A DNA stretch of 64,000 bases from a virus. The first letter of the stretch is position 1; every line of letters begins with the position of its first letter. Under the pieces are notes generated by a model. It had not been told where the DNA came from. It searched no databases and saw only the letters and a list, made by a program, of their open reading frames with translations. Below are positions 16,456-60,624 of the stretch, in pieces. A program made the position numbers and the translations under genes. The DNA lies in IMG/VR virus record IMGVR_UViG_3300045971_000895, positions 64,001 to 128,000 of that record. The stretch is one strand, 5' to 3'.

Positions 16456-19400
16456 ATGTCGATGGACTTCTACAGGCGGCCGCAGCTTGCCGGTACCGCT
16501 CTCCGATTCCCTGACTACCCGATGCTGCGGGGGTCTGTGCATCGCCACGACCCAGACGGTGTGTCGTCTGCGCCATACTTCCCTCTCGCGACGGGTGGGG
16601 ACCTCACGCTCCTGGTTGACGGCACGCCCTTCACTGTCACGCTGACGGCGAATCCCTCGGCGCAGACGGTCGTCACGGCCATCAATGCCGTGATCTCCAG
16701 CAAGGGCTACGCTTACGACGAAGGGGGCGTGGTGCACGTCCGAACCCTGTCGAGGGTCGGCAGCGTCGAGGTGACGGGCACCCCGAGCGTGGCTCTTGCC
16801 CTCGGATTCGACCTGAGGCTGGGAGCACTGCGTACCTACGCTGGTGATGTGGCAGGCGCTGGAGAGGGCAGGATCAACAACCTCTTCGGCGCAGTGATGC
16901 CCGTCCCCGGCGAGAGTCTCAACTCTGAGAGCTTCGTTCGCGCACTGGCTCGCCTCTCAGCGAACCTGGACGTCCTGCTGTCGGACGGGAACAGGACGAC
17001 CCCGCAGTTCGTGGAGTGGGGGACGGTCACCTCCATCGATGACACCTCCGGCAACTACTCTCTCGTTTCGATCACACCGAACGCTCCATACGTCGGGCTC
17101 GGCGTCTCCAATGGCCTGGGCTCCTTGCGTGCAGGGGTCACTCTCGTCAAGGCCGCGATCGCTCCCTTCTTCTACCTGACCGCCGCTTCGGGCTATTACC
17201 CGTCCCCACACCAGGCGGTCGGTGTGGTGAAGGCCGCGTTCTTGTCCGAGCTCACTGGGGCCGCTCCCTACGCCAATGCCACCTCCGCAGCCGGTCCCGG
17301 GAATGTCTTCGGGCTCAGCTTGGTGAAGGCAGGCCCCTACCAGATCGATGAGATCCTCGGTGGTCGAGTCGTCTACCGCTCCGGCGGTTTCGGCGCCGCG
17401 CGAGTGGGCGACTACGTAGAGATCCGTCCCGACGCCAACACCACGAAGCTCCCGTGGGCCAACAACGGCATTCGCTGGAAGGTGGAGGCCGTCATCGGGA
17501 ACGGGCTGAGCCTGGCTCCGCTGTCGAAGGCAGAGCTCACCGATGCGGGACTTTCCGGGGCCAATGAGGTCCAACCGATCGTCAGCCTCAACGGCACGCG
17601 AGGCAACACCGAGAACTTCGGCGGGCTCTACCTCTGGACGGGCCCCACCATCGACGCTCCAAAGCTCGTAGTCTCACCCCCGATGGCTCCCTCCGCCATT
17701 GGCACTGTGGTGTGGGCAGCCGTTCCCTCCTCCCCACGTTCCCGAGCGCACGGCGAGGGGATGAACAACCCTGCCTTGAACATCCTCGCGCAAGGGTTCC
17801 CCCACAACGATGTCATCGTCACCAAGGGGACGATGTCGCTCACCGTGGGCACTCTTACGGTCTCCGGGATGGTGATCCGGAAGAACGGGTTCCGTAACGA
17901 CGTGAGTTCGACGCTCACAGGGCTGGGCAGCTACACCGGCTACATCATCCTCACAACCTCTGGTGCCGCGACTCTTGCGACATCCGCCGGCACTTTGCTG
18001 CCCGGCACCGGCATCCCTATCGCCAAGGTGGTCAGCGGCGCCATCACGCACGACCTACGCATCGCCGGAGAAGTCACGGAGCATGTGACCGTGGGCGGGG
18101 CCTACGCGATGCTCCCCGACATCCAGACGGCGATCTACTACTGCGCGCTGCGCGCTGTCGACGTGACGGAGATCGTCGTCACCTACGACCAAGCGAGCCC
18201 AGTCGGTGGATGGGTTACCGCGGGGTATCCCATCATGATTCGGGGGGAGAACCCTTCAATCTCTCTGGCGAGGAACGGGAGCAGTCCGCTCCTCACCTCG
18301 TCCGACTCCCAGAAGGTCATCCTCAAGAACCTCACCCTCCCGGTCTCCGACCCCAAGGTTGGGGAGCTCTTCGTCTCTCCCAGCAGCACCATCTTCGCCG
18401 TCGACTGCTTCGACTCGATCACGGGTGATCTCGTCTCGATGGCAAACCTCTCCACCGGAGTCGGTGGAGAGGTGGCCATCTACGGCGGACAGGGGACGCT
18501 CAGCCTCTTCGGAGCGACCAGCACTCGCGTCGGAGATGGGTCCATCACCGTGTACCTCGGCACCAACGCCACTACGGTGAGCCTCGGAGGCGCGAGTACC
18601 TCGACGGTGGTCCTCGGCACCCTGGCGGTGACGTTGTCGATCTCCGGAGCAAGCATCACGGTCACGGGAAGCGCCCAAGCGTCGACGCTCATCGGCACCA
18701 CCAAGGTCTCCACTCCGGTGGTCGAGGGCTATGCGGGAACGCTTAGCCTCTTCGGGACAACCTCCACGACCGTGGGCACCGGGTCCGCCAACACGTACGT
18801 GGGAGTCTCCAACGTTGGTGTCTACCTTGGGACCAACGCCACCTTGGTGGCCATTGGCGCGGTGTCTACGACGGTTTCCGGAACCTTGGCAGTGACCCAG
18901 TCGATCTCTTCTTCCTCGGCCACGGTCACCAACGCCAACGGCACCGTGAGTCTCGTGGACGGAAGCGCAATCCTCACTAGGGGGTTGCGCGTCGGAGCCG
19001 CGGGAGCGGCCCCAGCTACAGGAGAGGCGATCCTCTCTGCGAAGCTCACGGTCCCCGTGATCGAGAGCGGCTACGTGCCGGCGCAGAGCGTGAGCGGAGT
19101 GGTCATCGCGTTCACTGTCGAGTCTTTCCAGATGAGCCTGACCGATGTCGCCAAGTTCCGGACGGGGGACACTGTCACTGACACCCTTAACGCAGATGAC
19201 CATGGCGTGATCACCGGTATCAACTACTCCACCGGCTGGGTGACGACCGATCCTGGAGGGCTGTGGACGTCTTGGGAGACGGGGCACACCCTCACGGCCA
19301 ACCAAGCCACGATTGGGGTCTCCCCGCTGACTCTCCGGGCCAACACGGTGGGGGACGGGCCCGTCCGCGTGGCACCAAAGGATGGTCCGAAGACTGACAC

Positions 19401-45902: not shown

Positions 45903-46048
45903 GACACCTCCTGGTTTTGGGGTAACTACGCAACGTCAGACGCCTTATCCCACCGACTCAAAGAGAGTTTCCTTGTCATAGAAGGGCCCCAACGCCTACA
46001 CTCGGACCACGGACGAGTCCCTCTCCGCGTGCCTTAAGGAGCCCGACG
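45903..46048. promoter_or_regulatory. divergent intergenic region (lower GC) between the - and + blocks
   Basis: 146 nt without ORFs. Candidate TTGTCA-N18-TACACT element on the + strand. Confidence 0.35.
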
Positions 46049-47632
46049 ATGAAGACCGCAGGGGTGATGTTCGACTTCTACGACGACCCGACAGGTTCGG
46101 TCTTGAAGTCCGTGTTCCCGGATGCTGAAGAGCTTCCGGAGGTCGTGAAGACCGCTCACATCCTCAACGCCGAGGAGCGTGACGTCCTTCGCGACGAGGC
46201 CTACGCCCTCGTGATGCACAACGACGGGCAGGTCTTCCGCAAGTTCGCATGCGTGGACCCCGGCAACACGCTCCTCTCCCTCGTCTACTTCGAGAAGACG
46301 GCGGGCATCCTTCCGCAGGAAGCGCGGGACGCGGCCTACGCGAACATCATGGCCCGCGCCGCGGAGTTCGACCTTCTCGACAAGGAGGCCGAGTCCTCGA
46401 CCCAGAAGACGCTCAACGAGACGCACGGCCTCGGTGCCATGGCGGGGGCTGGTGCGCTGTACGCGCACTTGCACGGGCGGCATCTCGGCCGCGGTGCGGC
46501 CTTCGGTGGGACTGCATGGCTCGCGGCCAAGGGACTGAAGGCGGCCGTGAAGGACAAGAAGGCCTCCCTCGAGAAGTCTGCCGTCAAGAAGGAGGACGAG
46601 GAGGAGGCTCCCAAGAAGGACGAGCCCCGCGGCACTGGCAAGCACCCCCAGCGCAAGCGCGACCCGATGGAGCAGCCCTTCGCCGGCGACGAGGCAGACT
46701 GGGCACAGCGCACCAACCTCCGGTCCATCCAGGCCGGCGGGCCGTCCTCAGGCCGGGTGGGCGAGGCTCTCTCCAACCTCAACACCAAGACGGCTGCTGC
46801 CCCAGGCGTGATGCAGCAGATCGCGGCTCACGGCAAGAAGGCCGTCGACTGGGCCAAGCCGCACGCGGCCAAGGCCGTGGAGGCCGTGAAGGCCAACCCC
46901 GGGCTCGCCGCGGGCGCCGCGGGCGCCGGCATCGTGGCCGGTCGCATGTCGAAGAACGCTTCGGTGGACGTCTCCGGCCAGACGCCGGAGATCCGCTTCG
47001 TGAAGCAAGCCGCCGAGCACCACGCTCTCGGCCACAAGTTCCCCCTCGACAGCTACTCGGACATCCGGGCCGCCGTCGACTACTTCAAGCAGAGCTGGCC
47101 GGACTTCCAGCCTCCCGAGCGGCACGAGTTCGCCGTGAAGGTGGCTGCCCGGGCCGAGGCCATCGGCCTCGAGGTGCCGGAGCTGATGGCCCGCTACGGC
47201 TCCACCAGCTACGCCCCCGACGTCGAGGCCCACCTCGCCAACCGGAAGGCCAACTGCGGCGCCGAGTTCCACGAGGTCTACGACGCCCTGAAGGAGAAGC
47301 GGGCCGAGATCGAGCCGGAGCACTTCGCCGCGCTGCTCTCCAAGGCCGACGTCACCACCGGCCTGAACTGGCACTGGGGCGGGGCGGTCTCCGACCCCTG
47401 GCTGGCCACCTTCGGCGGCACGACTGCTTCCGAGAAGACGGCCTTCGGCTGGGAGGGCGGCGGCTACACGGTCGACGCCGAGAAGCTCCAGGAGGCGGCC
47501 GCCAGCGGCGTCCTCAAGGGCAACTTCACCGACGACATCGTGACGGCCTTCGAGAAGGACCCGGTCACCATCTTCTCCTCGATGCCCGACGACACCAAGC
47601 TCATCATGGCCCGTCTGGCCTCGGAGGCTTAG
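46049..47632 (+). CDS. hypothetical protein (527 aa), possible virion/internal protein
   Basis: GC3 bias. Ala/Lys-rich central region. Confidence 0.45.
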   Translation: MKTAGVMFDFYDDPTGSVLKSVFPDAEELPEVVKTAHILNAEERDVLRDEAYALVMHNDGQVFRKFACVDPGNTLLSLVYFEKTAGILPQEARDAAYANIMARAAEFDLLDKEAESSTQKTLNETHGLGAMAGAGALYAHLHGRHLGRGAAFGGTAWLAAKGLKAAVKDKKASLEKSAVKKEDEEEAPKKDEPRGTGKHPQRKRDPMEQPFAGDEADWAQRTNLRSIQAGGPSSGRVGEALSNLNTKTAAAPGVMQQIAAHGKKAVDWAKPHAAKAVEAVKANPGLAAGAAGAGIVAGRMSKNASVDVSGQTPEIRFVKQAAEHHALGHKFPLDSYSDIRAAVDYFKQSWPDFQPPERHEFAVKVAARAEAIGLEVPELMARYGSTSYAPDVEAHLANRKANCGAEFHEVYDALKEKRAEIEPEHFAALLSKADVTTGLNWHWGGAVSDPWLATFGGTTASEKTAFGWEGGGYTVDAEKLQEAAASGVLKGNFTDDIVTAFEKDPVTIFSSMPDDTKLIMARLASEA

Positions 47633-48061
47633 ATGGCATTCGATTGGAGGTTCGCCGCCAAGGCGGGGCTCGCAGGAAGTGCGGGTGTCGCGGCCACCCT
47701 CGGTGGTGCCTACCTCGCGGACAAGCTGATCCGCAAGGTGGAGAAGCGGCACGGGAAGACCAAGAAGGCCATGTACTCGGCCTTCGCGGACGAGCTCGAG
47801 AAGATCGCTTTCATCTCCCCGGCGGCTGACCTCGCCGGCCTCGGCATCCTCGCCGTTCCTGGCGTGCGGCACCTGATGAAGAAGCCGAAGGGCACCGAGC
47901 AGGACAAGAAGGAGCGCAACACGGCGAAGTACGAGACCGCCGGCCTCGCCACACTGGGCGGCTCCGTCCTCGCCAAGGACCACAAAGAGCTGGGTGCCGG
48001 GATCAAGAAGGGCTTCGGCGCTGTGAAGAACTTCGCAGGCAAGGCTCTTCGGCACGCATGA
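47633..48061 (+). CDS. small protein with FADELEKI motif (paralogue A)
   Basis: KAMYSAFADELEKIAF, similar to KAQYAGFADELEKISAGF in the 49537 gene. Confidence 0.4.
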   Translation: MAFDWRFAAKAGLAGSAGVAATLGGAYLADKLIRKVEKRHGKTKKAMYSAFADELEKIAFISPAADLAGLGILAVPGVRHLMKKPKGTEQDKKERNTAKYETAGLATLGGSVLAKDHKELGAGIKKGFGAVKNFAGKALRHA

Positions 48062-48972
48062 CCCCTGAGGAGCGACTCACGGACCTGCTGGCTGGCGCCA
48101 AGCCGACGGCGCCGGTGGAAGGGCCCGCGCGGAGTGCGGAGCCAGAGGCCTCGAGCCCGGTCACCATCCGCACGCTCTTCTTCCACCAGGACGTCCACCC
48201 GGTGGTCCTCGACTTTGCCCTGCTCCGCACCTTCGGGGTGGCGTGGCACGGCTGGGAAGCCGAGACCATCTGGGCGGAGATCCACCGGGCCTTCAAGTCC
48301 CAGATCTCAGAGATCGTCCGGGCCAAGGTGATGGCGGTGAAGACCTGCCACGTCTCCACCGGTCCTTGGGAGAGCTGGCAAGTCTTCGAGAAGGTCATCC
48401 AGGTCCTCAACAACAACCTGCCTCGCTGGGACTTGATGCAGGCTCCGGGCCTCGAGCAGCTGTATGCCGGAATCGACATCATGGACACGCTGGACAAGCG
48501 GGGCTTCTCCGACGAGGTGAAGCTCTACATCGCCGCGGCGTGCCACAACGAGGACGTCCTCTTCGCTCCTGCCCCTCTCGACTTCGTGCAGGTCGAGGTG
48601 AGTCAGCCCCACTACGTCTGCCAGGACTGTGGCAACGAGGACTCGGCGCTCTTCCACGACGGCATCTGCGACACCTGCACGGAGAAGTGGACCGGAGGGA
48701 CGATGGGTGGCCGTCCCGACACGCAGTTGCTGGCCCAGGGCAAGGGCCACAACCTGAAGACCGTGCTGCGCTTCGACCCCGACTCGACTCAGAAGCTCTG
48801 GGATACGGTGAAGGGCAAGAAGACGGCGGACGTGGCTGACTCGCTCGACGAGACTCCAGAGGGTACTCAGGTCGCCAAGCTTCTCATGGCCCGTGACTAC
48901 CTCAATGTCAGGAGAAGGCAACTCGCCGATCAACTGACTTCCTTGAAGACATGGCTCGGGAGCAACGGATGA
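48058..48972 (+). CDS. hypothetical protein (304 aa) whose last ~20 codons are atypically coded and duplicated downstream
   Basis: C-terminal ...ARDYLNVRRRQLADQLTSLKTWLGSNG uses rare codons (AGG AGA CAA TTG ACA ACT). Confidence 0.45.
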   Translation: MTPEERLTDLLAGAKPTAPVEGPARSAEPEASSPVTIRTLFFHQDVHPVVLDFALLRTFGVAWHGWEAETIWAEIHRAFKSQISEIVRAKVMAVKTCHVSTGPWESWQVFEKVIQVLNNNLPRWDLMQAPGLEQLYAGIDIMDTLDKRGFSDEVKLYIAAACHNEDVLFAPAPLDFVQVEVSQPHYVCQDCGNEDSALFHDGICDTCTEKWTGGTMGGRPDTQLLAQGKGHNLKTVLRFDPDSTQKLWDTVKGKKTADVADSLDETPEGTQVAKLLMARDYLNVRRRQLADQLTSLKTWLGSNG

Positions 48973-49463
48973 CCGAGCGCACATGCACAAGGAAGGGGTG
49001 TCTTGGAAAGCACCGGGCCAAGGGCCTGTGTGCCAAGCACTACTTGAAGGTCTACAACCGGAAGAACAAGGCGAAGATCTCGAAGCAGGTCAGGGCCTAC
49101 TACGAAAGCAACGTCACCGACATCAAGGCGTACTCGAAGAGGTGGCAGGGCGAGACCTTGGATGGGCGCTGGAGCCACTTCAAGGCCCAGGCGAAGGCAC
49201 GCAAGCAGAAGATGCTGCTCACCAAGGAAGAGTTCGCAGACATCACCACCAAGCGGTGTTCCTACTGCGGCGACTTCTCCAAGGACAAGATCTGCGTTGG
49301 GGTCGATCGCATCGACAGTGCTCAGGGCTACCACGCTGGCAACGTCGTTCCGTGCTGCGAGATGTGCAACCTCATGAAGCGCCACTACGATGTGGACGCA
49401 TGGGTTGCCCACCTCAAGAAGGTCATCTCCTTCATCCACAGCGGCGGGAAGGTGACGGCATGA
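48951..49463 (+). CDS. HNH homing endonuclease
   Basis: CSYCGDFSKDKICVGVDRIDSAQGYHAGNVVPCCEMCNLMK matches the HNH motif. Estimated lower GC than neighbours. Its start overlaps the end of the upstream gene. Confidence 0.7.
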   Translation: MAREQRMTERTCTRKGCLGKHRAKGLCAKHYLKVYNRKNKAKISKQVRAYYESNVTDIKAYSKRWQGETLDGRWSHFKAQAKARKQKMLLTKEEFADITTKRCSYCGDFSKDKICVGVDRIDSAQGYHAGNVVPCCEMCNLMKRHYDVDAWVAHLKKVISFIHSGGKVTA

Positions 49464-49540
49464 CGCGCTACATGAACCTTCGTCGTCGCCAGCTGGCTGA
49501 CCAGCTCACCTCGCTCAAGTCCTGGCTCGGTGCTGCATGA
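49462..49540 (+). pseudogene. relic of the original 3' end of the interrupted gene (26 codons, MTRYMNLRRRQLADQLTSLKSWLGAA)
   Basis: Same peptide as the C-terminus of the 48058 gene in native codon usage. Starts with ATGA overlapping the HNH stop. Confidence 0.35.
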
Positions 49541-50070
49541 AGATCGCCTCCATGGTGAAGTACACGGAGAAGGGCAAGCTGGTGAAGAAGGCCCAGTACG
49601 CCGGCTTCGCCGATGAGTTGGAGAAGATCTCTGCCGGCTTCCTGGCCAATGTCGGGACCAAGATCGTCCAGACTGGGCGCAACGCTGCTCAGTGGGCCAA
49701 GGCCCAGCCGGCTGCAACAGGTGCCGCATTCAAGGACCATCTCCAACCCATGGCGATGATGAAGGACAGTTGGAACAAGTCCAAGTGGTGGGGCATGAAG
49801 GGGCTGACGGTTGCTGGTGCAGGGATGGAAGGGGCCTCCGCGCTCAAGAAGAAGGACCCCGAGGGGCGCGGGCGCGGTAGAGGTCAGCGCCTCGGCAGCG
49901 CCATCGCTGGCACGGCCTCTGGCCTCATCACCATGAAGCATGGGATCATTCCAGCTCTGGCTACCGGGCTCGCCGCAAGCTACGCTGGCGGGAAGGTCGG
50001 GAAGCGGTTCGACAAGATGAAGAGCCACGCGCCGGGCGCTGTGCAGGCCCCACCGCCTGAAAGCACTTGA
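49537..50070 (+). CDS. small protein with FADELEKI motif (paralogue B)
   Basis: 177 aa. Shares the motif with the 47633 gene. Gly/Ala-rich. Confidence 0.4.
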   Translation: MKIASMVKYTEKGKLVKKAQYAGFADELEKISAGFLANVGTKIVQTGRNAAQWAKAQPAATGAAFKDHLQPMAMMKDSWNKSKWWGMKGLTVAGAGMEGASALKKKDPEGRGRGRGQRLGSAIAGTASGLITMKHGIIPALATGLAASYAGGKVGKRFDKMKSHAPGAVQAPPPEST

Positions 50071-52130
50071 TGGCCTACGACAACCTCAGCCTCGGCTTCG
50101 GTGGAACCTCCCGCTTCAGCGGGCAGCGCGGCCGCACGGCCGATGGCATGGGGCGCAGCGGCGTCCGCTACCCGTCGCCCTTCTTCGACCTCGGCCAGAC
50201 CTACCTGCCGCCGGACCAGAAGAAGCTGCTGCACTGGTGCCGCTTCTACTACCTGACGAACCCGCTCATCAACTCGGTCGTGCACAAGATGGCGGAGTAC
50301 CCCATCACCGAGATCATCATCGACGAGAAGGACCAGCAGGTGAAGGAGAAGTGGGAGGAGATGCTGGGCAGCCACCTGCGCTACCGGCCCTTCCAGATCG
50401 AAGTGGGGATCGACTACTTCGCCTACGGCATCTGCATCACCACCATCCACTTCCCCTTCACGAAGTGGCTCCAGTGCCGCCACTGCAAGCACAAGGTGCA
50501 GGCCAAGAAGACCGTCTACAAGTGGCGCAACCTGGACTACATCATCCAGTGCGACAAGTGCGGGACGACGGCGCCGGCGAAGGTGCAGGACTTCTACGAG
50601 AAGGACCTGCGCCGCATCCGCCTCATGCGGTGGAATCCGGAGTACGTCCACGTCGACCCTGGCTTCGCTGGCACGGACCCCATCTACACCTTCGAGCTCC
50701 CGCTCCAGGTCCGCAACGACCTGCTGCTCGGCAAGAAGACCCTGCTCGACACCATCCCCGACGTCTTCGTCGAGGCGCTCCGGCGCAACAAGTTCGTCCG
50801 CTTCGCCGACGAGAACATCTTCGTCTTCAAGCGCCCCATCATCAGCCAGAAGGACAACGGCTGGGGGATGCCGCTCATCTTCCCCGTCCTCAAGGACACC
50901 TTCTACCTCCAGGTGCTGCGCAAGGCGCAGGAGGCCATCGCGCAGGAGCACATCGTCCCGCTGCGCATCCTCTTCCCGCAGGCCGGGTCCAACACCTCCG
51001 ACCCCTACACCACGATCAACCTCGACTCCTGGAAGAGCCGGGTCGAGGGCGAGATCGCGAAGTGGAAGTACGACAACAACTACATCCCCATCCTGCCCCT
51101 GCCCATTGGCAACGAGACCATCGGCGGCGACGGGAAGGCGCTCATGCTGCACCAGGAGATGCAGGCCTGGTCCGACCAGATCGTGGCCGGTATGGGCGTG
51201 CCGCGGGAGTTCGTCTTCGGCGGCCTCCAGTACAGCGGCTCCAACGTCTCCATGCGGATGCTGGAGAACTCCTTCATCGGCTACCGCGTCGACCACGAGA
51301 ACATGCTCAACAACTTCGTGATCCGGCGCATCGCCAACTACATGGGCTGGAAGCCCGTGCGCGCCCACATGAAGCGCTTCAAGATGGCGGACGACCTCCA
51401 GCGCACCGCCTTCCTCTTCCAGCTCAACCAGGCCCAGAAGATCTCCGACGTCACCCTGCTCCAGGAGGCTGACCAGGATCCAGCGGTCGAGGAGCAGAGG
51501 AAGAACATCGAGATGGACCGCCAGCTCGAGTACCAGCGCAAGATGACAATCGCGCAGGCTCAGGTGCAGGCAGAGGCTCAGGCCATCCAGATGAAGGCCC
51601 AGGCCGAGGTGCAGCAGGAGATGATGGCCAAGGGGATGGCGATGCCCGGTGCAGAGGGTGCAGCCGGCGGGCAGCCTGGCGCTCCTGGGGGCCAGCCCGG
51701 GGCACAGCCGGGTGCCGAGGGTGGGCAGCCTGGCCAGCAGGGCGAGATGATGGGCGGGGAGCAGGCGGCTCCCGGGATGCCGGAGAACGCCACAGTCTCC
51801 CCCGAAAACGCCCAGCAGGCCCCGACCGAGGGCGTCCCGCAGGAGATGCAGAGCCCCATCACGCAGGGCCAGACGGGTGGCGGGATGAACCTCCTCTACC
51901 TCGCTCGCCGTGCCGTGATCGCGATCCAGGAGACGGAGAAGCAGGACCCCTCCGGCGCGAAGAAGAGCCTCGCGCTCCAGACGATGAAGATGTCCAACCC
52001 CCAGCTCTACTCGCTCGTCATCCGGATGCTCCAGAGCGAACAGGGTTCCCAGGCCAAGCCGCTCGATCCCGTGCAGAGCCCGCTGCCGCAGCAGAAGCCC
52101 GAGAGGCGGCAGTCTCCGGTCGGCGTCTAG
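50067..52130 (+). CDS. portal-like protein (687 aa) with embedded zinc ribbon and Gly/Gln/Pro-rich C-terminal region
   Basis: Size and position suggest a portal. CRHCKHK...CDKCG ribbon. QPGAPGGQPGAQPG repeats at 51650-51800. The assignment is tentative. Confidence 0.35.
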   Translation: MMAYDNLSLGFGGTSRFSGQRGRTADGMGRSGVRYPSPFFDLGQTYLPPDQKKLLHWCRFYYLTNPLINSVVHKMAEYPITEIIIDEKDQQVKEKWEEMLGSHLRYRPFQIEVGIDYFAYGICITTIHFPFTKWLQCRHCKHKVQAKKTVYKWRNLDYIIQCDKCGTTAPAKVQDFYEKDLRRIRLMRWNPEYVHVDPGFAGTDPIYTFELPLQVRNDLLLGKKTLLDTIPDVFVEALRRNKFVRFADENIFVFKRPIISQKDNGWGMPLIFPVLKDTFYLQVLRKAQEAIAQEHIVPLRILFPQAGSNTSDPYTTINLDSWKSRVEGEIAKWKYDNNYIPILPLPIGNETIGGDGKALMLHQEMQAWSDQIVAGMGVPREFVFGGLQYSGSNVSMRMLENSFIGYRVDHENMLNNFVIRRIANYMGWKPVRAHMKRFKMADDLQRTAFLFQLNQAQKISDVTLLQEADQDPAVEEQRKNIEMDRQLEYQRKMTIAQAQVQAEAQAIQMKAQAEVQQEMMAKGMAMPGAEGAAGGQPGAPGGQPGAQPGAEGGQPGQQGEMMGGEQAAPGMPENATVSPENAQQAPTEGVPQEMQSPITQGQTGGGMNLLYLARRAVIAIQETEKQDPSGAKKSLALQTMKMSNPQLYSLVIRMLQSEQGSQAKPLDPVQSPLPQQKPERRQSPVGV

Positions 52131-52139
52131 AGGTAGGGC

Positions 52140-52619
52140 GTGTCCAAGGCCGAAGTGTTCTACGCCAGGGAGAGGTCCCTGTCAGAAGGGGACCTCCCTG
52201 TCTGGGACTACGTCGTCGAGCAGGGGGACGGGTTGGTCGTACTGGCCGGCTACTGTGCGGGCTGGGACGAGTACACCCTCGACGAGCTCAACAAGAAGCA
52301 CGGGAAGTACTACGGCAAGAGCCTCTTCGATCAGCAGGAGTCGCGTCGGAAGTGGCAGCAGAAGTACCACCTCGATGGGCACTCGACGAGGGAGTACGCG
52401 CAGCTCTGCCACCGAGAGTACCGCCTTGACCAGGAGCTCTCGATCACTCCACTCAAGGCCTCCCGGCCTTGTGAGGTGTGCTTGGAGCCGGCCACCTTCT
52501 TGGTCGAGTTCGTGGGAGGGCAGCCTCAGTTCCATCTCTGCGCTGACCACGCGACTCGTGAGTGCGTCGATCTGCTCCTCCCCTCGGAGGTTGCCCCGCA
52601 GCGCATTGTCTTCTACTGA
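52140..52619 (+). CDS. hypothetical Cys/His-containing protein (159 aa)
   Basis: GTG start with RBS GAGGTAGGG. Confidence 0.4.
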   Translation: MSKAEVFYARERSLSEGDLPVWDYVVEQGDGLVVLAGYCAGWDEYTLDELNKKHGKYYGKSLFDQQESRRKWQQKYHLDGHSTREYAQLCHREYRLDQELSITPLKASRPCEVCLEPATFLVEFVGGQPQFHLCADHATRECVDLLLPSEVAPQRIVFY

Positions 52620-54312: not shown

Positions 54313-57300
54313 TTGGACGAGAACATCCAGCCTGAGCAGGCCTTCGAGTCGCTCAAGAAGAACACGCTCGAAGCCATCAAGTCCTACTTCCCAGACGGCA
54401 AGTACGCTGGCAGGAAGCAAAGCATCCACCTCACCAACCTGCGCGTCGAGGACAACCTCAAGTCCGACGACGTCTCTTCGCAGACCGAGGTGAAGGACAA
54501 GGACGGAACCTGGGGCGTCCCCATCAAGGCCGACATGAAGCTCGTGGACAACACCACGGGCAAGGTGATCGACGAGACGAAGGGCTCCATCCTCGCCCGG
54601 CTCCCCAAGCTGACCAACCGCTACAGCTACATCGTCAACGGCAGCGAGTACCAGGTCGACCACCTGTTCCGCCTGAAGAGCGGCATCTACGCCCGGGTGC
54701 AGGACAACGGTGAGCTCGAGTCGGAGTTCAACCTGGCGAAGGGTGGTCGCCCCTTCTCGGTCCACCTCGACCCCGTGAAGCGCAAGCTGTCGATGAAGTA
54801 CGGCAACTCCCACATCCCGCTCTACCCGATCATGAAGAGCCTCGGGGTGGCGGACGACGACATCGAGAAGAGCTGGGGCAAGGCACTCTTCGAGGCCAAC
54901 AAGCCGAAGACCGACGAGAAGTTCAATGGCTCTCTCGCCAAGCTCGTGAAGCTGGTCTCCGAGGAGCCTGTACCTGCTGACCTCTCCCCCGACGACCTGC
55001 ACAAGCACGTCAACTCCTTCTTCAACCAGCTCTCCGTCCGCCCCGACACCACGAAGCTCACGCTCGGGGAAGCGCACGAGGCGGTGACCGGGAAGACCCT
55101 GCTCCAGGCGGCGCACAAGCTGCTCGGTGTCTCTCGCGGCACGCACCAGCCCGACGACCGCGACAGCCTCGCCTTCAAGGAGACTGCCAGCATCGAGGAC
55201 TTCATCCCCGAGAAGATCCTCCGCGCCGGCGCGCGTACCATCCGGCCCAGGCTTCGCCAGACCATCGACCAGAAGCAGTCGGTCCGAGACATCGTCGCCT
55301 CCAACCTCTTCGGCCGCCCGGTGGGCGAGTTCTTCACGAAGGGCGGCTCGGTGGCGGAACGGTCCGAGCAGACCAACCCCATCCAGATGCTCTCAGCCCA
55401 CCGCAAGACCACGCTCATGTCGCGGGACTTCGGCGGCATCAAGAGCGAGAACTCCCTCACCGAGGGGATGCAGACCATCAACCAGAGCCACTTCGGCTTC
55501 CTGGACCCGATGCACACGCCGGAAGGCGAGAAGATCGGCATCACCCTCCACCTCGCTTCCCACGTCCGGAAGAACGGGAAGGACCTCGAGATCCCCGTCT
55601 TCGACACTCACACAGGGAAGTCCACCTGGGTGAACGCCGTCGACTTCCACGGGGCAGATGCCGTGCTCCCGGACCAGGTGACCTGGGTCGACGGCAAGCC
55701 CAAGCCCATCTCCGCCACGGTCCGCACCAAGACCTCTGGCGGCGACATCGTCAACAAGCCCTTCAAGGACTCGCGCTACGTCATGCCCTCCACCAAGGGC
55801 ATGTGGAACTACGCCTCCAACCTCGTCCCCTTCCTGTCGGCCGACAACGGCAACCGCATCATGATGGCCGACAAGCAGATGGAGCAGGCCATCGGCCTGA
55901 AGCACCGAGAGGTGCCGCTGGTTCAGTCGAAGACGGACCATGGCGATCCCGAGCACACCTTCGAGAAGCTCTTGGGGCACTTCATCGCCTCCCGTGCGCC
56001 CGCCGCGGGGAAGGTCTCGTCCATCAAGGGAGACGTCGTTCACATCGCTGGAGACGACGGCAAGAAGCATGAGGTCCACCTCTACAACAACTTCCCCCTG
56101 AACGATGCGAAGGGGATGCTGCACTCGGACCTGACCGTGAAGGTCGGCGACAAGGTTCGCAAGGGCCAGGTGGTAGCCGACAACAACTTCACCAAGGACG
56201 GCAGCCTCGCCATCGGTACCAACCTGCGGGTCGGCTACATCCCGTACAAGGGCTACAACTTCGAGGACGGCATCGTCATCTCGGAGAGCGCGGCGAAGAA
56301 ACTGACCTCCGAGCACCTGCACAAGAAGATCGTCGAGATCGACCCCGACAACGACCACATCGGCAAGGCGAAGTACCAGGCGTGGGCCATCTCGGAGTCG
56401 CAGGCCATGCCCAAGGCGTACCTCGACGCCCTCGAGGACAACGGCGTCGTGAAGGTCGGCACCAAGGTGAAGCCAGGCCAGGTGCTCGTCGCCGCCATCG
56501 GGAAGAACGACACCAAGAAGGCGTCGCTCATGTCGGCCTACGGCAACAAGCGCGCCTTCAAGCCGGTGAAGAACAAGTCGATGGTCTGGGACGAGGACCA
56601 CGAGGGAACCGTCACCAAGGTGGTGCACGACCCGCAGGGCCGCGGCGTGCGCGTCTACGTCCGCACCGACGAGCCCGTCGTCATCGGCGACAAGCTCACC
56701 GGCCGGCACGGCAACAAGGGCATCGTCTCGCTGATCCTGCCTGACCACGAGATGCCCTTCACGAAGAACGCCAAGGGGGAGCGGGAGTCGCTGCACGTCC
56801 TCCTCAATCCGTCAGGCATCCCCTCCCGCATCAACCCCGGCCAGATGCTGGAGACTGCCGCAGGGAAGATCGCCGAGAAGACGGGCAAGCCCTACATCGT
56901 CGACAACTTCGGTGACGCCCACTCCGACCACCGCACCAAGCTGGAGAAGGAGCTGAAGGCTCACGGGATCACGGACGAGGAGACTGTCTACGACCCGAGC
57001 GATACTCGCCGCGCCCTCGGCTCCGTGCTGGTCGGTCCTCAGTACGTCCTGAAGCTGAAGCACCAGGTGGAGAAGAAGGTCTCGGCTCGAGGCGGAGGGA
57101 CGGACGTCAACGGGCGGAAGCTCGCCGTCGACACCGACCAGCAGCCGGTGAAGGGCGGCGAGCACGGCGGTCAGGGCTTCGGCGCTCTCGAGATGTACTC
57201 GCTGCTCGGCCACAACGCCCGGCACAACATCCGGGAGATGTCGACCTACAAGAGCGACAACCAGGACATGCTCTTCTGGAACATGATCCAGAACGGGCAC

Positions 57301-60300
57301 GAGCCGCCGCCCCCCACTGTCCCCTTCAGCTACCGGAAGTTCGAGGGCCTGCTCCGTGGGCTTGGCGTCAACGTGACGAAGGACGGGACCTCCGTCCGCA
57401 TCCATCCCATCACCAACAAGGAAGTCCTGCGCCTCACCGGGAACCGGGAACTGAAGGACGCAGCGAAGACCCTCCGCTCCAAGGACCTGAAGCCTGTCCC
57501 GGGCGGCCTCTTCGATGAGCAGCTCACCGGTGGCCTCGACGGCGACAAGTGGTCCCACATCAAGCTCGACGAGCCGGTACCCAACCCCATCTTCTGTGGC
57601 GGCGGCAACCAGCCCGGACCTGTGCCTGTTCTCCTCGGCCTCAAGATGAAGGAGTTCGAGGACGTCATGGCGGGGAAGCACTCGATCGGAGGGCTGACCG
57701 GTGGCGCAGCCGTCGAGGCGGCCCTCAAGAAGGTCGACGTCCACAAGGAAGTCGACGCCTTGAAGAGAGCCCTGCCAGGGCTGCGCGCCGACGAGCTGGA
57801 CCGGGCCAACAAGAAGCTCAAGTACCTGCTCGCGCTGAAGGACTTGGACCTCAAGCCCCACGACGCCTACATGATGCACTACGTTCCGGTGGTGCCTCCG
57901 AAGTTCCGTCCGGCCTCGGCCACCCCCTCGGGCGACGTGAACTACTCCCCGCTCAACGGGCACTACAAGAACATCAGCCTCATCAACGAGCACCTCCGCA
58001 ACTTCGACTCGGCCCACTTCGACGACAAGCACAAGCAGCCGCTCCGCACCCAGCTCTGGGACGCCATGAAGGCGCTCCAGGCGGTGGGCACTCATCGAGA
58101 GGTCTACGACACGGACCAGAGCGGCGACCGAGCCCTGAAGGGCATCCTCGACATCATCGGCGGCAAGCCAGGAGTGGAGCAGCCGAAGGAGGGCTACTTC
58201 CAGTCGAAGCTGGTGAAGCGCCGGCAGAACCTCTCTGTCCGCTCGACCATCGTCCCTGAACCGAAGTTGGGCATCGACGAGGTCGGTCTCCCCAAGGGCG
58301 CGGCGATGGAGATGTACAAGCCCTACGTCGTGGCCCAGCTCCAGAAGTGGAACTTCCACCCGCTGGCGGCGCAGGACGAGATCAAGAAGATGACCCCCAT
58401 CGCCTTCCGCGCGCTGGAGAAGGTCGTGGTGGATCGTCCTCTGCTCTTGAAGCGTGATCCGGTGCTGCACAAGTTCGGAGTCATGGCCTTCAAGCCGAAG
58501 CTGGTGGAGGGCAAGGCCATCCAGATCCACCCGCTGGTCTGCGGTGGCTTCAACGCCGACTTCGACGGAGACACGATGGCCGGCACCATCCCCATGTCCA
58601 GAGAGGCCGTGGAGGAAGCGAAGAAGCTCTTCCCTTCCAACAACCTCTTCAGCCCCACCAACTACGGGGCGATGTACCTGCCGGCCAACGAGGCCCTGCT
58701 GGGGCTCCACCTCCTCTCGAAGTGGGGCAAGAAGACAGGCAAGACGTTCGCCAACACGACCGAACTCAACAAGGCCGTGGACGAAGGCCATGCAGATGTC
58801 ACGGACGTCGTCCACCTGAAGGGCATGAAGGAGCCCACCACGCTGGGCCGGCTACTCCTCGAGTCGCGCCTCCCTCGTGGCTACTCCCAGAACTCGAAGG
58901 TCCTCCACAACAGCGAGTTCGAGTTCTCGAAGAGAGAGCTGAAGAAGATGGCCCCGGAGATCGCCAACAAGCACCGGGACCACTACGCCAACACCGTCGA
59001 CTCCCTGAAGAACCTCGGCAACGAGTGGTCCTACAAGCTGGGCTTCTCCATCGGCCTCAAGGATCTGAAGACCATCCCCCAGCGTGACGCCATCATCGGC
59101 AGGGCCGAGAAGAAGGTGCATGAGCTGTCGAGCAAGGGAGAGGCCCACGACGCCGACGTCATCCGCATCTACCAGGGAGCCACGGGAGAGATCGAGGAAG
59201 CCCAGAAACTCCTACACGGCGGGCCGACGCAGGGAGACCACCGCCTTGCCCAGATGGTCTTCTCCGGTGCTCGAGGTGATGCTTCCCAGCTTCGCCAGAT
59301 GATCGCAGCCCCCATGCTGGTGGAGAGTTCCTCCGGCAAGGTGGTGCCCTACCCGCTCAAGCGCTCCTTCGCAGAGGGTCTCGACATCGGGGACTTCTGG
59401 ATGTACCAGCACGGCGCCCGCAAGGGCATGATCCAGAAGGGCCGCGGCACAGCAGACCCTGGCGCCATCACCAAGGACATCATCAACGCCTCCATGTCGA
59501 CCCTCATCGTCTCTCCGGACTGCGGGACGAAGGAAGGTGTTCACATGAAGGTCAACGACGAGGACATCCACGACCGCTACTTGGCGGCTCCCTACAAGCT
59601 GAAGGACGGCACCCACATCAAGGCTGGAGAACTTCTCACGCCTGCCGTGCTCTCTCGGCTCAAGAACTCGAAGATCGAGACGGTCTCCGTCCGCAGCGCG
59701 TTGAAGTGCGCTCACGGAGATGGGATGTGCGCGAAGTGCTTCGGCCTGAATGAGTCCGGAGTTCTCCACAGCAACGGGACCAACATCGGCATCCTGGCCA
59801 GCCAGGCCATGGGAGAGCCGTCGACCCAGCTCTCGATGCGGGCCTTCCACACGGGCGGCGTCGCCGGGTCAGCGGCCGGCAAGTCGATGGACGCCATCAC
59901 CCGTCTCCGCAACCTCCTCGAGATGCCGAAGCGGATCCGGGATGAGGCCACGGTGTCGATGGCGACCGGCAAGGTCAGCGCGGTCCGCAAGGACCCAGCC
60001 GGCGGCGCCGACATCATCGTCACCAGCTACCACAACGACCAGCCGGTGGAGACGAAGCACTACATCCCCCGGCACCTCATCAACGAGGACATCAAGGTGG
60101 GGTCGCAGGTGAAGAGGGGCGACAAGCTCTCTGGTGGGTTCGTCAACCCGCACCGGCTCCTCGAGTCGACGAAGAGCATCCACGCCGTGCAGAACTACCT
60201 GACCGATGAACTCCACGATGGGCTGTTCAAGGGGCTCGGGGTGCGACGCAGGAACATCGAGGTGGCGGTTCGCAACATCACCAACCTGACCAAGGTGAAG

Positions 60301-60624
60301 GACCCGGGCCACTCGGAGTGGCTGCCAGGGGACATCCTTCCTCGCTCCGTGGTCGAGGAGCACAACAGGACGAAGGGGGAGAAGGAAGCCCCCGTCATCC
60401 ACGAGCCGGTGCTCAAGGGCGTCGGAGAGATCCCTCGCAACATCACCACCGACTGGATGGCCAGGCTCAACTACCAGAACCTCCACTCGACGGTTCGTGG
60501 TGCGGCCGCCATGGCCCAGAAGTCCAACATTCACGGGAGCCATCCCATCCCCGGGCTGGCGTATGGTGCGGAGTTTGGTAGGCCACCCGCTGACCTGAAG
60601 TCCAAGAAGCCGCACGTGTACTAG
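54313..60624 (+). CDS. single-polypeptide multisubunit-type RNA polymerase, fused beta and beta-prime (2103 aa)
   Basis: Beta blocks: PMHTPEGEKIGITLHLA, LTGRHGNKGIVS, GGEHGGQGFGALEMYSL. Beta-prime blocks: catalytic NADFDGD, bridge-helix-like GARKGMIQKGRGTADPGAITKD, trigger-loop-like AMGEPSTQLSMRAFHTGGVAG. TTG start at 54313. Confidence 0.8.
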   Translation: MDENIQPEQAFESLKKNTLEAIKSYFPDGKYAGRKQSIHLTNLRVEDNLKSDDVSSQTEVKDKDGTWGVPIKADMKLVDNTTGKVIDETKGSILARLPKLTNRYSYIVNGSEYQVDHLFRLKSGIYARVQDNGELESEFNLAKGGRPFSVHLDPVKRKLSMKYGNSHIPLYPIMKSLGVADDDIEKSWGKALFEANKPKTDEKFNGSLAKLVKLVSEEPVPADLSPDDLHKHVNSFFNQLSVRPDTTKLTLGEAHEAVTGKTLLQAAHKLLGVSRGTHQPDDRDSLAFKETASIEDFIPEKILRAGARTIRPRLRQTIDQKQSVRDIVASNLFGRPVGEFFTKGGSVAERSEQTNPIQMLSAHRKTTLMSRDFGGIKSENSLTEGMQTINQSHFGFLDPMHTPEGEKIGITLHLASHVRKNGKDLEIPVFDTHTGKSTWVNAVDFHGADAVLPDQVTWVDGKPKPISATVRTKTSGGDIVNKPFKDSRYVMPSTKGMWNYASNLVPFLSADNGNRIMMADKQMEQAIGLKHREVPLVQSKTDHGDPEHTFEKLLGHFIASRAPAAGKVSSIKGDVVHIAGDDGKKHEVHLYNNFPLNDAKGMLHSDLTVKVGDKVRKGQVVADNNFTKDGSLAIGTNLRVGYIPYKGYNFEDGIVISESAAKKLTSEHLHKKIVEIDPDNDHIGKAKYQAWAISESQAMPKAYLDALEDNGVVKVGTKVKPGQVLVAAIGKNDTKKASLMSAYGNKRAFKPVKNKSMVWDEDHEGTVTKVVHDPQGRGVRVYVRTDEPVVIGDKLTGRHGNKGIVSLILPDHEMPFTKNAKGERESLHVLLNPSGIPSRINPGQMLETAAGKIAEKTGKPYIVDNFGDAHSDHRTKLEKELKAHGITDEETVYDPSDTRRALGSVLVGPQYVLKLKHQVEKKVSARGGGTDVNGRKLAVDTDQQPVKGGEHGGQGFGALEMYSLLGHNARHNIREMSTYKSDNQDMLFWNMIQNGHEPPPPTVPFSYRKFEGLLRGLGVNVTKDGTSVRIHPITNKEVLRLTGNRELKDAAKTLRSKDLKPVPGGLFDEQLTGGLDGDKWSHIKLDEPVPNPIFCGGGNQPGPVPVLLGLKMKEFEDVMAGKHSIGGLTGGAAVEAALKKVDVHKEVDALKRALPGLRADELDRANKKLKYLLALKDLDLKPHDAYMMHYVPVVPPKFRPASATPSGDVNYSPLNGHYKNISLINEHLRNFDSAHFDDKHKQPLRTQLWDAMKALQAVGTHREVYDTDQSGDRALKGILDIIGGKPGVEQPKEGYFQSKLVKRRQNLSVRSTIVPEPKLGIDEVGLPKGAAMEMYKPYVVAQLQKWNFHPLAAQDEIKKMTPIAFRALEKVVVDRPLLLKRDPVLHKFGVMAFKPKLVEGKAIQIHPLVCGGFNADFDGDTMAGTIPMSREAVEEAKKLFPSNNLFSPTNYGAMYLPANEALLGLHLLSKWGKKTGKTFANTTELNKAVDEGHADVTDVVHLKGMKEPTTLGRLLLESRLPRGYSQNSKVLHNSEFEFSKRELKKMAPEIANKHRDHYANTVDSLKNLGNEWSYKLGFSIGLKDLKTIPQRDAIIGRAEKKVHELSSKGEAHDADVIRIYQGATGEIEEAQKLLHGGPTQGDHRLAQMVFSGARGDASQLRQMIAAPMLVESSSGKVVPYPLKRSFAEGLDIGDFWMYQHGARKGMIQKGRGTADPGAITKDIINASMSTLIVSPDCGTKEGVHMKVNDEDIHDRYLAAPYKLKDGTHIKAGELLTPAVLSRLKNSKIETVSVRSALKCAHGDGMCAKCFGLNESGVLHSNGTNIGILASQAMGEPSTQLSMRAFHTGGVAGSAAGKSMDAITRLRNLLEMPKRIRDEATVSMATGKVSAVRKDPAGGADIIVTSYHNDQPVETKHYIPRHLINEDIKVGSQVKRGDKLSGGFVNPHRLLESTKSIHAVQNYLTDELHDGLFKGLGVRRRNIEVAVRNITNLTKVKDPGHSEWLPGDILPRSVVEEHNRTKGEKEAPVIHEPVLKGVGEIPRNITTDWMARLNYQNLHSTVRGAAAMAQKSNIHGSHPIPGLAYGAEFGRPPADLKSKKPHVY

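Follow-up and report, generated by a model that had tools for sequence, protein, structure and literature searches.

A PacI-like free-standing endonuclease gene in a phage genome that probably travels with a replacement 3' end of its target gene

The window, a stretch of 64,000 nucleotides of viral DNA (IMG/VR record IMGVR_UViG_3300045971_000895, positions 64,001 to 128,000 of that record), contains a conserved host (target) gene whose 3' end is present twice, with a free-standing endonuclease ORF of the HNH superfamily between the two copies (Table 1). The host protein combines a CxxC...CxxC zinc ribbon with a long C-terminal helix (residues 267-302), and its C-terminal 30 residues form a dense run of invariant or near-invariant positions. 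Its homologues (n = 169) lie mostly on contigs of up to ~200 kb. The AF2 model of the protein (pLDDT 90) returned no informative fold match, and Pfam and NCBIfam gave nothing usable for it, for the endonuclease or for the product of the next gene. When 46000..52200 was compared by megablast with 50,697 phage records, there were no matches, and thus no annotated relative.

Table 1. Coordinates of the features discussed, as positions in the window
Feature	Position	Strand	Remarks
Host (target) gene	48058..48972	+	304 aa; conserved, function not known; two genes upstream of the portal gene
Possible co-conversion tract	48690..48897	+	excess divergence from L005 approaching the insertion
Upstream copy (replacement 3' end), Y282 to stop	48898..48972	+	rare codons; fused to the host gene; left part of the proposed mobile unit
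Free-standing endonuclease gene	48969..49463	+	164 aa; PacI-like His-Me finger (HNH superfamily); start and stop both overlap neighbours as ATGA
Displaced resident 3' end (stub)	49460..49540	+	26-codon mini-ORF encoding MTRYMNLRRRQLADQLTSLKSWLGAA and stop; native homology from 49469 (TAC)
Downstream copy proper	49469..49540	+	within the 26-codon ORF
Next gene	49537..50070	+	177 aa; start coupled to the stop codon of the stub
Portal protein gene	50067..52130	+	context landmark; PHROG portal match 7.6e-10

The host gene terminates in YLNVRRRQLADQLTSLKTWLGSNG (last letters WLGSNG before the stop), spelled TAC CTC AAT GTC AGG AGA AGG CAA CTC GCC GAT CAA CTG ACT TCC TTG AAG ACA TGG CTC GGG AGC AAC GGA TGA. 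An earlier note on this DNA had claimed that the C-terminal peptide is encoded twice, and this is borne out: the two peptides agree at 18 of 22 aligned residues (17 of 21 in the stretch from Y to G), and the repeat stands far above chance (in tblastn, E = 2e-10 inside the window, with 0.43 for the runner-up). The spacing given there, 570 nt, was right to within one nucleotide, the measured value being 571 nt. Despite the near-identical peptide, nucleotide identity between the copies is just 42/75, and 14 of the 17 degenerate codons that specify the same residue differ (P = 1.7e-4 given the codon usage of the genome). The upstream copy does use rare codons, as had been noticed (AGG 0.12, AGA 0.05, CAA 0.08, TTG 0.07, ACA 0.06 and ACT 0.11 of their synonymous families), and its CAI of 0.38 belongs to the lowest 0.6% of 21-codon windows; the normal codons ascribed to the downstream relic were likewise found, with a typical CAI of 0.70. 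The second copy does not belong to a longer gene. Across the endonuclease region, the stub frame has a GC3 of 0.41 vs 0.87 for the endonuclease frame, and the long overlapping ORF is unconserved in the relative L028. The ATG of the stub overlaps the endonuclease stop codon, and its own stop overlaps the start of the next gene (ATGA) exactly as the native 3' end does in relatives without the endonuclease.

The most likely start of the endonuclease gene is the ATG that forms the ATGA overlap with the host stop, since the N-terminus aligns with the L028 homologue from there. A GGGAG derived from Gly-Ser codons, 6 nt before this start, could be a ribosome-binding site; it is given little weight because the native spelling is also G-rich. 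No promoter or terminator was found between the genes, and Rfam searched at E up to 1 over 48400..50000 gave no match, and no intron ribozyme around the ORF. As the earlier note had stated, the ORF lies between the copies and has a lower GC content (58.2% vs 63.8%), but its being compositionally foreign was rejected: GC3 (0.86) and CAI (0.73 vs 0.72 for the host gene) equal those of the genome, so the lower GC is attributable to amino-acid composition only.

At the protein level, the endonuclease is recognized only by PHROG endonuclease VII and HNH profiles (2e-16 to 1e-10) and through weak matches to PacI. It gives no match to Pfam HNH (PF01844) or related Pfam HNH families, and its L028 copy, at 12.3 bits, remains below the Pfam HNH gathering threshold of 21.4. 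Among PDB sequences, 4h9d (HNH) and 3ldy (PacI) were matched weakly (phmmer E ~0.01), and the sole Foldseek match in the PDB was again PacI, also weak (E 0.086, TM 0.39-0.44), with an AF2 model of pLDDT 69 built from a 5-sequence alignment. The motif DR-D..GY...N....C..CN..K of the window endonuclease is of the PacI class: CVGVDRIDSAQGYHAGNVVPCCEMCNLMK corresponds to the core motif CLGVDRSDSFEGYSPQN...C..CN..K in PacI (PDB 3ldy/3m7k), with VDRIDSAQGY aligned to VDRSDSFEGY. In distant homologues, G-V-D-R-I-D-S-x2-G-Y-x3-N-V-V-P-C-C-x2-C-N-x2-K is invariant or nearly so, with variation at position 5 (I or Y) and position 6 (D or S), and D113, R114, G120 and Y121 are invariant among five homologues. 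C97xxC100, C129/C130xxC133, N125 and N134 are all present, and the model, at its moderate confidence, places strands E109-114 and E126-130 and helix H131-139 in a predicted beta-beta-alpha-metal core. Enzymes of the PacI class have a Tyr in the omega loop in place of the catalytic His (PMC5714182, PMC3384342); PacI itself belongs to group 20 of the His-Me fingers (PMC5714182). The window protein matches such a non-canonical HNH enzyme in that the catalytic His is missing and a Tyr stands in the loop, where a catalytic role is predicted for it. Nevertheless, PacI, a homodimeric restriction enzyme of bacteria, has a site of 8 bp; the two sequences are ~22% identical, with weak statistics, and the N-terminal halves are unrelated.

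The distribution of the endonuclease gene is sporadic. Among ~40 loci with the host gene, the second copy occurs only in the window (with an identical copy, L029) and in L028/L077, and only those carry the endonuclease; the duplication without an endonuclease, which the earlier note had named as evidence against homing, was seen at none of them. The gene is missing at the collinear locus from L005, from L001/L030 and from ~40 other loci. L005, the closest relative (89-93% nucleotide identity to the window), and L001/L030 (83-87%) each have a single 3' end, and the stub matches the native end of L005 at 64/72 nt (89%), which equals the genome-wide identity between the window and L005. The comparison with relatives lacking the endonuclease, suggested in the earlier note, thus supports homing. 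The distance from host stop to portal gene is 1098 nt in the window, compared with 536 nt in L005; the excess of 562 nt is close to the 571 nt between the copies. Over its first ~100 nt, the next gene is almost the same in the window, L001 and L005. L069, with 1.9 kb from host gene to portal, was considered as a further candidate and set aside; it has two ordinary-looking genes there and no nuclease motif.

The second lineage, L028/L077, is divergent (~53% GC; host protein 57% identical to that of the window) and shows the same order of replacement end, endonuclease gene and stub. Its stub begins at the same TAC codon as that of the window, and the endonuclease tail of L028 is the same, AAGGTGACGGCATGA. 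Between the window and L028, the endonuclease is 75% identical in amino acids, vs 46% for the host protein just upstream of the junction and 37% for the next gene. With a dN/dS of ~0.11, the endonuclease is under purifying selection, and the dS of ~1.6 between the two copies points to an old spread. No endonuclease-positive lineage beyond these two was found among 5.8 billion proteins. Of the more distant relatives of the enzyme (29-43% identity, 22 viral loci), 0 lie between duplicated gene ends, which indicates that the architecture is specific to the lineage of the window's endonuclease. Three of these loci (L015-L017) have merely non-coding repeats ~2 kb apart.

The two copies also differ in ancestry. 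The stub of the window is closest to L005 (56/63 nt), and that of L028 most resembles the native end of its nearest relative without the endonuclease, L075 (52/66, vs 41/66 for the upstream copy of L028). In a 63-nt identity matrix, the replacement end groups with L001, L080 and the upstream copy of L028 (46-54/63), and not with native ends (<=45/63). In a three-way comparison, the first part of the host gene is mostly L005-like, and the window shifts from a mixture of L005-like and L001-like positions to an almost uniformly L001-like state at 48901; host-gene ancestry thus switches exactly at the duplication boundary. Replacement-type ends are found in three deep host-protein clades, 50-56% identical to each other, and the nearest relatives of each (82-86% identity) carry native ends. 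What the earlier note calls a recoded copy was not recoded for the purpose, since spellings partly like it are found in nature (L082, L004); a heterologous allele travelling with the endonuclease gene is a better description. L082 (P0058) is intermediate (50/63 nt vs L001, 47/63 vs L005), keeps the native stop/start overlap and may resemble the source lineage of the replacement end. L081 (P0004), tried as a further replacement-type end, turned out to have native spelling.

Replacement ends also occur without an intact endonuclease gene. In L080, the replacement end is followed by a 76-nt spacer, which may contain an endonuclease remnant, and in L001/L030 nothing lies between the genes. Both states look like, and fit with, loss of the endonuclease after invasion, leaving a presumably resistant allele.

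We consider it probable (roughly 80%) that the 571-nt segment 48898..49468 is a mobile unit, composed of a heterologous, presumably cleavage-resistant version of the last 24 codons and a free-standing PacI-type HNH gene. The intronless homing put forward in the earlier note is supported by the empty sites of relatives, by the same insertion point in two divergent phages, by an endonuclease that is more conserved than its flanks, and by the ancestry switch at the boundary. As judged from architecture and conservation, the putative enzyme would act on the native allele carried by a co-infecting relative, cleaving at or near ...CGC GAC/TAC ATG AAC ATC CG... (the slash marks the junction), and the genome with the endonuclease would be the template for repair of the break. 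The left homology arm would be the body of the host gene, and the right arm the displaced native end (stub) with the next gene. Repair would install the replacement end together with the endonuclease gene and move the 3' end of the recipient downstream; as the unit comes with a new end, the host protein would remain intact. The stub probably preserves translational coupling to the next gene, since its ATG overlaps the endonuclease stop and the native ATGA overlap with the next gene is kept.

The invaded genome would be immune because neither junction rebuilds the full native site: on the left, the native left half would stand beside a respelled right half, and on the right, the native right half beside the tail of the endonuclease gene. 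The insertion falls within the last 24 codons of the host gene at a junction codon common to the window and L028/L077, and across 28 distinct native alleles the 20-mer that holds the junction is the one best conserved in nucleotides within a 117-nt region. The window has no occurrence of the native 23-mer across the junction, even when 3 mismatches are allowed, and its replacement end departs from the native one at 5-6 of 17 junction-spanning positions. The L028 stub retains 16/17 nt of GACTACATGAACATCCG, so that immunity would need a site extending further left of the junction. Approaching the insertion, the ~200 nt to the left of the unit show 12, 6 and 7 window-L005 differences per 60 nt vs 2-6 further upstream, in a noisy series, and 6, 4 and 6 window-private changes per 60 nt vs 1-3. 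This is only suggestive of a co-conversion tract, as the gradient is noisy.

Other origins of this arrangement were considered. Two copies that encode nearly the same peptide and flank the endonuclease gene could also result from in-place tandem duplication or slippage of the 3' end, followed by divergence and an independent landing of the endonuclease, or from arrival of the downstream copy together with it. Such an origin is strongly disfavored and very improbable: so many synonymous differences have to be set against a window that is only 7-11% diverged from single-copy L005, the downstream copy has the resemblance to L005 expected of the resident end, whereas the upstream one groups with the ends of other clades, and the same pattern recurs independently in the L028 lineage relative to L075. 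It is hardly credible at all that the gene encodes a packaging-associated nuclease of the HK97 gp74 type, working with terminase and portal as a normal, non-selfish phage gene. The position two genes upstream of the portal gene would suit this role, and HNH proteins are common beside packaging genes (PMC3592412); yet the two closest relatives lack the gene, as do ~40 other loci of the same gene order, and it is flanked by a duplicated gene end and belongs to a PacI-like class and not to canonical HNH.

An explanation closer to the homing reading is that the architecture is a fossil, which arrived by homing and whose endonuclease no longer homes, being inactive or kept for another role such as co-infection competition or regulation. 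The old spread implied by dS, the finding of just two endonuclease-positive lineages, the existence of decayed or lost states (L080, L001) and the missing canonical His are in keeping with it. We nevertheless find it unlikely, given that both endonuclease copies are intact with a low dN/dS, that homing endonuclease gene (HEG) theory predicts fast decay once homing stops, as in L080, that the PacI-class motif shows no variation in distant homologues, even at the Tyr, and that PacI, which has this motif, is an active enzyme (PMC5714182).

If the segment is a mobile unit of this kind, the closest known mechanism is that of the WHO elements of Torulaspora and Lachancea yeasts (Coughlan et al., 2020, eLife; PMC7282813); the window element works like WHO, outside that family. 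In both, the unit consists of an endonuclease gene and an upstream 3' end of the target gene that confers resistance (presumed for the window), the fragments start at about the same position, and old ends are displaced downstream from a fixed start point. The target gene ends up chimeric in both, and its phylogeny conflicts with that of the remaining genome. However, WHO proteins are intein-like LAGLIDADG enzymes with zinc fingers, homologous to HO/VDE and encoded in eukaryotic nuclear genomes, unlike the 164-aa PacI-type His-Me finger of this phage, in which profile, PDB sequence and Foldseek searches found no LAGLIDADG, zinc-finger fusion or HO/VDE-like domains. The replaced piece measures ~400 bp in WHO vs 75 bp in the window, WHO loci build clusters by repeated invasions whereas the window has a single unit, and only in the window are the genes joined by overlapping stop and start codons.

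Among phages, intronless homing by free-standing endonucleases is described for T4 SegF and other Seg/Mob enzymes (PMC8351571, citing Belle et al., 2002; surveyed in PMC10448857). The window gene resembles these in being free-standing between phage genes and adjoining a conserved gene, and in being sporadic among relatives, with spread expected through break repair and co-conversion of flanks in co-infection. The described free-standing endonucleases of the T4 type are intergenic and rely on polymorphisms in the neighboring target, and mobE in nrdA of Aeh1 is a gene-splitting case. T4-type cases are not known to carry a replacement gene end or to leave a displaced stub, and a full-text literature search found no phage example of an endonuclease with both.

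In mitochondrial atp6 and cob of Endoconidiophora resinifera, a partial C-terminal copy lies downstream of the full gene, with endonuclease ORFs between (PMC6279837). The arrangement of downstream C-terminal copy and intervening endonuclease is as in the window; in contrast, these are organellar genomes, their enzymes are LAGLIDADG or GIY-YIG, the ORFs are often degenerate and multiple, and operon-style translational coupling as in the window is lacking. For Allomyces atp6, Paquin et al. reportedly described in 1994 a C-terminal duplication beside a free-standing endonuclease ORF.

Under the homing reading, a conserved gene can harbor a phage endonuclease at its coding end with no intron, intein or gene splitting, since the endonuclease brings a gene end of its own, a design already known from yeast WHO elements and some fungal mitochondrial endonuclease ORFs. 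A concrete target site is predicted in the conserved sequence around GAC/TACATGAACATCCG, and a natural allele set is at hand, comprising putatively sensitive (L005, L075 type) and presumed-resistant (window, L001, L080 type) forms. The native, invaded, decayed and lost states would constitute a natural series for the life cycle of a homing endonuclease gene, and a likely biological role is suggested for a phage member of the poorly understood PacI class, which lacks the usual catalytic histidine. More tentatively, and with doubt prevailing, PacI-type units that replace gene ends might be an undescribed way for selfish nucleases to live in essential phage genes, in which the stub is a working part (right homology arm and coupling mini-ORF) and the gene end persists as a "vaccinated" allele after decay of the nuclease. 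If so, the element would distribute a foreign gene terminus among phage clades that are deeply separated, and would bring its own cycle of invasion to a close. In annotation, the ORF of 26 codons should be read as a gene end that was displaced, and the host gene as having a chimeric end.

The C-terminal peptide of the host gene (the gene invaded, two genes upstream of the portal gene) is encoded twice in the window, on either side of an endonuclease ORF, at an offset of 571 nt. The earlier note had claimed this duplication and proposed aligning the two copies; the alignment bears it out, with 18/22 aligned residues identical (17/21 from Y to G) and only 42/75 nt at the DNA level. The peptide repeat has E = 2e-10 inside the window, the runner-up match 0.43. 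Also upheld is the claim that the upstream copy is written in rare codons and the downstream copy in normal ones. With a codon table built from eleven long window genes, the CAI of the upstream copy (0.38) falls in the lowest 0.6% of 11,097 21-codon windows, and that of the downstream copy (0.70) is close to the median. Of the 17 degenerate codons that encode the same residue in both copies, 14 are different, vs an expectation of 8.1 under genome codon usage in the upstream copy (P = 1.7e-4). The HNH ORF between them does have the lower GC content described (58.2% vs 63.8%), but this does not point to a foreign origin: its GC3 (0.86) and CAI (0.73) values match those of the genome, and the lower GC is due to a lysine-rich composition.

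Layout of the invaded locus in the window
Feature	Position	Strand	Description
Host gene	48058..48972	+	304-aa protein, C-terminus ...ARDYLNVRRRQLADQLTSLKTWLGSNG*
Endonuclease ORF	48969..49463	+	164 codons; ATG overlaps host-gene stop as ATGA
Stub ORF	49460..49540	+	26 codons, MTRYMNLRRRQLADQLTSLKSWLGAA*; ATG overlaps endonuclease stop as ATGA
Next gene	49537..50070	+	ATG overlapped by stub stop
Portal gene	50067..52130	+	Downstream of next gene

Across 169 homologues of the host protein, many from contigs of up to ~200 kb, invariant or near-invariant positions are densely packed within the last 30 residues. In most, the C-terminus reads ...YMN[IV]RRRQLA[DE]QL..LKSWLGA[ASTV]*, which is the version of the stub and not that of the fused end. 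The proposed comparison with HNH-less relatives was possible in two close cases. In L005 (IMG/VR UViG_3300045747_000648), the closest relative found, with 89-93% nucleotide identity to the window, the sole 3' end of the gene is TAC ATG AAC ATC CGG CGG CGC CAG CTG GCT GAT CAG CTC ACC TCG CTC AAG TCC TGG CTG GGG GCG GCA TGA, and it overlaps the ATG of the next gene. The window stub matches this end at 64/72 nt (89%), which equals the genome-wide identity, and 7/8 differences are synonymous; this argues that the stub is the resident, original end of the lineage's own gene. The host-gene stop and the portal start are 1098 nt apart in the window but 536 nt apart in L005, a difference of 562 nt that is near the unit size of 571 nt.

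The second relative without the HNH gene, L001, is 83-87% identical to the window. In a three-way comparison, the window is mainly L005-like in the first part of the host gene and almost uniformly L001-like from 48901 to 48962. The switch point at 48901 lies one codon past the TAC at which stub homology starts (49469), and the inserted unit is therefore delimited as 48898..49468. Over ~200 nt to its left (48690..48897), the window is unusually divergent from both relatives; this noisy signal is only suggestive, and would fit a co-conversion tract.

Among 5.8 billion proteins, a single further close copy of this nuclease was found (P0122, 75% identity), on the Logan contigs L028, L077, and L079 of a phage with ~53% GC, a lineage known from contigs of <=5 kb only. 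Its host protein (P0045) is 57% identical to that of the window. In L028, the host gene ends in ...YANIMRRQLADQLTTLKSWLGSAHE*, spelled ATG AGA AGA CAG TTA GCA GAT CAA CTG ACA, and is followed by the HNH gene, whose terminal AAG GTG ACG GCA TGA is the same as in the window. The stub comes next (MMNYMNIRRRQLADQLTTLKSWLGTA*, spelled CGT CGT CGC CAA CTT GCA GAC CAG TTG ACC); its homology starts at the same TAC ATG AAC as in the window, and its stop overlaps the start of the next gene. Between the window and L028, identity is 75% for the HNH protein, 46% for the host protein directly left of the junction, and ~37% for the next gene. The nearest HNH-less relative of this lineage, L075 (P0047, 82% core identity), has a native end that shares 52/66 nt with the L028 stub vs only 41/66 with the L028 upstream copy. 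The matches of each stub to its nearest relative (L005 and L075) argue for a local stub and an imported fused end in both lineages.

In an identity matrix over 63 nt, the upstream copies of the window and L028 group with the ends of L001 and L080 (mutually 46-54/63), and share <=45/63 with the native ends, i.e., both stubs, L005, L075, and L002. Derived spellings common to the replacement group are TA[CT] [CG][TC]C vs native TAC ATG, GAT CAA CTG AC[TA] vs GA[CT] CAG CTC ACC, AGR vs CGN arginine codons, and GG[GA] AG[CT] (Gly-Ser) vs Gly-Ala. On the host-protein tree, replacement ends fall in three clades that are mutually only 50-56% identical, while the nearest relatives of each clade (82-86%) are native-ended; the replacement end has spread horizontally among host-gene clades. 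The earlier note had taken it for a recoded, cleavage-immune target copy travelling with the HNH gene. The matrix and the tree support an imported, differently spelled end, but not a purpose-made recoding: since partly similar spellings of the gene end occur naturally (L004, L082), it looks like a captured, heterologous allele taken from a diverged lineage.

The replacement end is also found alone. In L001 and in L030, which is 100% identical and comes from another sample, ...GGG AGT GAG TGA TG AAG... leads directly into the next gene. The last ~60 nt of the gene are 58-72% identical between L001 and L005, vs 92-95% for the preceding 300 nt, and this drop indicates that the end was imported into L001. 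In L080 (P0091, 51% core identity to the window), a replacement-type end without a stub is followed by a 76-nt spacer (1071..1146) whose stop overlaps the ATG of the next gene. One frame of this spacer encodes TQLLCKRENCKKIVTFLQDVGVVRAV*, similar to the HNH protein's N-terminal Cys motif plus its C-terminal tail (KKIITFIEVRVKVTA*), and the spacer DNA has a 17/19 nt match at the right place in the L028 gene (1/300 shuffles is equally good). These suggestive likenesses may mark the remnant of a deleted endonuclease gene, with its N- and C-terminal ends fused. The loci suggest a series of states, from native (L005, L075, and most others) to invaded (window, L028), decayed (L080), and clean loss (L001), with the replacement end kept in all post-invasion states; in L001, the nuclease may have been lost, or the replacement end may have come in by itself. 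A 6-nt repeat, GCATGA, on either side of the stub in both the window and L028 would offer a simple route to stub deletion.

The endonuclease has no passing match in Pfam HNH or NCBIfam; its hits in PHROG are to families with endonuclease VII and HNH annotations (E 2e-16 to 1e-10). In distant homologues, G-V-D-R-I-D-S-x2-G-Y-x3-N-V-V-P-C-C-x2-C-N-x2-K is invariant or nearly so, with I or Y at position 5 and D or S at position 6. Among solved structures, 4h9d, an HNH endonuclease, and 3ldy, the restriction enzyme PacI, match best, the link to PacI being statistically weak; CLGVDRSDSFEGYSPQN...C..CN..K of PacI aligns with CVGVDRIDSAQGYHAGNVVPCCEMCNLMK of the endonuclease. For an AF2 model (pLDDT 69, beta-beta-alpha core at residues 109-139), PacI is the sole Foldseek match in the PDB (E = 0.086, probability 0.97). 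In the His-Me finger group defined by PacI, the catalytic His is absent and a Tyr in a loop stands in its place (PMC5714182, PMC3384342). The Arg at the His position of the endonuclease and its invariant Tyr121 fit this class. A comparison of the window and L028 genes gives a dN/dS of ~0.11 and a dS of ~1.6; the gene has been maintained as functional since an old split of the two copies.

Across 28 distinct native alleles, the junction falls within the 20-mer that is best conserved at the nucleotide level in a 117-nt region. L005 and L075, the alleles closest to the invaded lineages, have a perfect common 17-mer over the junction (slash), GAC/TACATGAACATCCG. The replacement end alters 5-6/17 of these positions, the stub is without the native left half, and the native 23-mer was not found in the window even at 3 mismatches; a putative target site across this point would not survive at either of the new junctions. 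If a native allele were broken during co-infection, the carrier genome would act as repair template, with the host-gene body as left homology arm. The right arm would consist of the stub and the following gene, in which the first ~100 nt are nearly identical in the window, L001, and L005. Repair via these arms would remake the stub at the same codon at each invasion, so that it looks local. The replacement end would have to differ from the native one because a left junction with native spelling would restore the site, and because like copies could recombine and delete the nuclease. In the native state, the next gene is coupled to the host-gene stop codon. In both lineages, the stub keeps an intact reading frame and overlaps its two neighbours as ATGA, which suggests that it also serves to bring ribosomes over from the endonuclease to the gene that follows. 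Searches of the region for intron-like RNA, promoters, and terminators were negative. Cleavage, the predicted target site, and immunity are what we infer from these sequences, and the unit may still be mobile today.

The empty sites, the second carrier, and the pairing of a local stub with an imported end support the original reading as intronless homing, and among phage elements the unit belongs with the free-standing homing endonucleases. To our knowledge, described phage cases carry no replacement gene end, and full-text literature searches found none that does. The proposed mechanism matches the WHO elements of yeasts nearly point for point (PMC7282813). A WHO unit comprises a nuclease gene and, upstream of it, a 3' end that confers resistance; it displaces the old end downstream, the fragments begin at one position, and the target gene turns chimeric (PMC7282813). 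However, WHO proteins are unrelated to the window's nuclease, and the unit is therefore an analogue, not a member of that family. A second analogue is provided by the C-terminal duplications of fungal mitochondrial atp6 and cob that adjoin endonuclease ORFs (PMC6279837).

Other variation is seen around the host gene. Directly upstream, the genes encode 527 + 142 aa in the window (46049..48061), 390 + 344 aa in L001 (2794..5004), and 478 aa in L002 (3565..5001), making this a further variable region at the border of a conserved gene. The gene after the stub is conserved at both ends, but its middle (window ~49640..50030) is unlike L001 and L005 in DNA sequence, these two being similar to one another over that stretch; this middle part is a separate mosaic replacement beside the endonuclease. 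Between the host and portal genes, L069 has 1.9 kb with two genes (1188..3094; no nuclease motif visible) where the others have one. The motif F-[AL]-D-E-L-E-K-I occurs in the small proteins flanking the window's host gene (47633..48061 and 49537..50070, as YSAFADELEKIA and YAGFADELEKIS), twice in the next gene of L001 (5927..6676), and in both extra L069 genes (1089..3093); these may be paralogous virion or scaffold-like proteins with a common targeting or cleavage motif.

The window is part of a metagenomic contig of 198,259 bp, to which none of the annotated INPHARED phages is similar in DNA sequence. It encodes a helicase and three neighbouring ORFs of 1425-1499 aa on the + strand, a giant protein with a Baseplate_J-like domain (4411..8910) and two without a Pfam match (11528..15805 and 16456..20826). 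A single 2103-aa ORF (54313..60624, +) of this ~198-kb phage has Rpb2-type domains at residues 351-930 followed by Rpb1-type domains at 1171-1999, and encodes a multisubunit-type RNA polymerase in which beta and beta' are fused.
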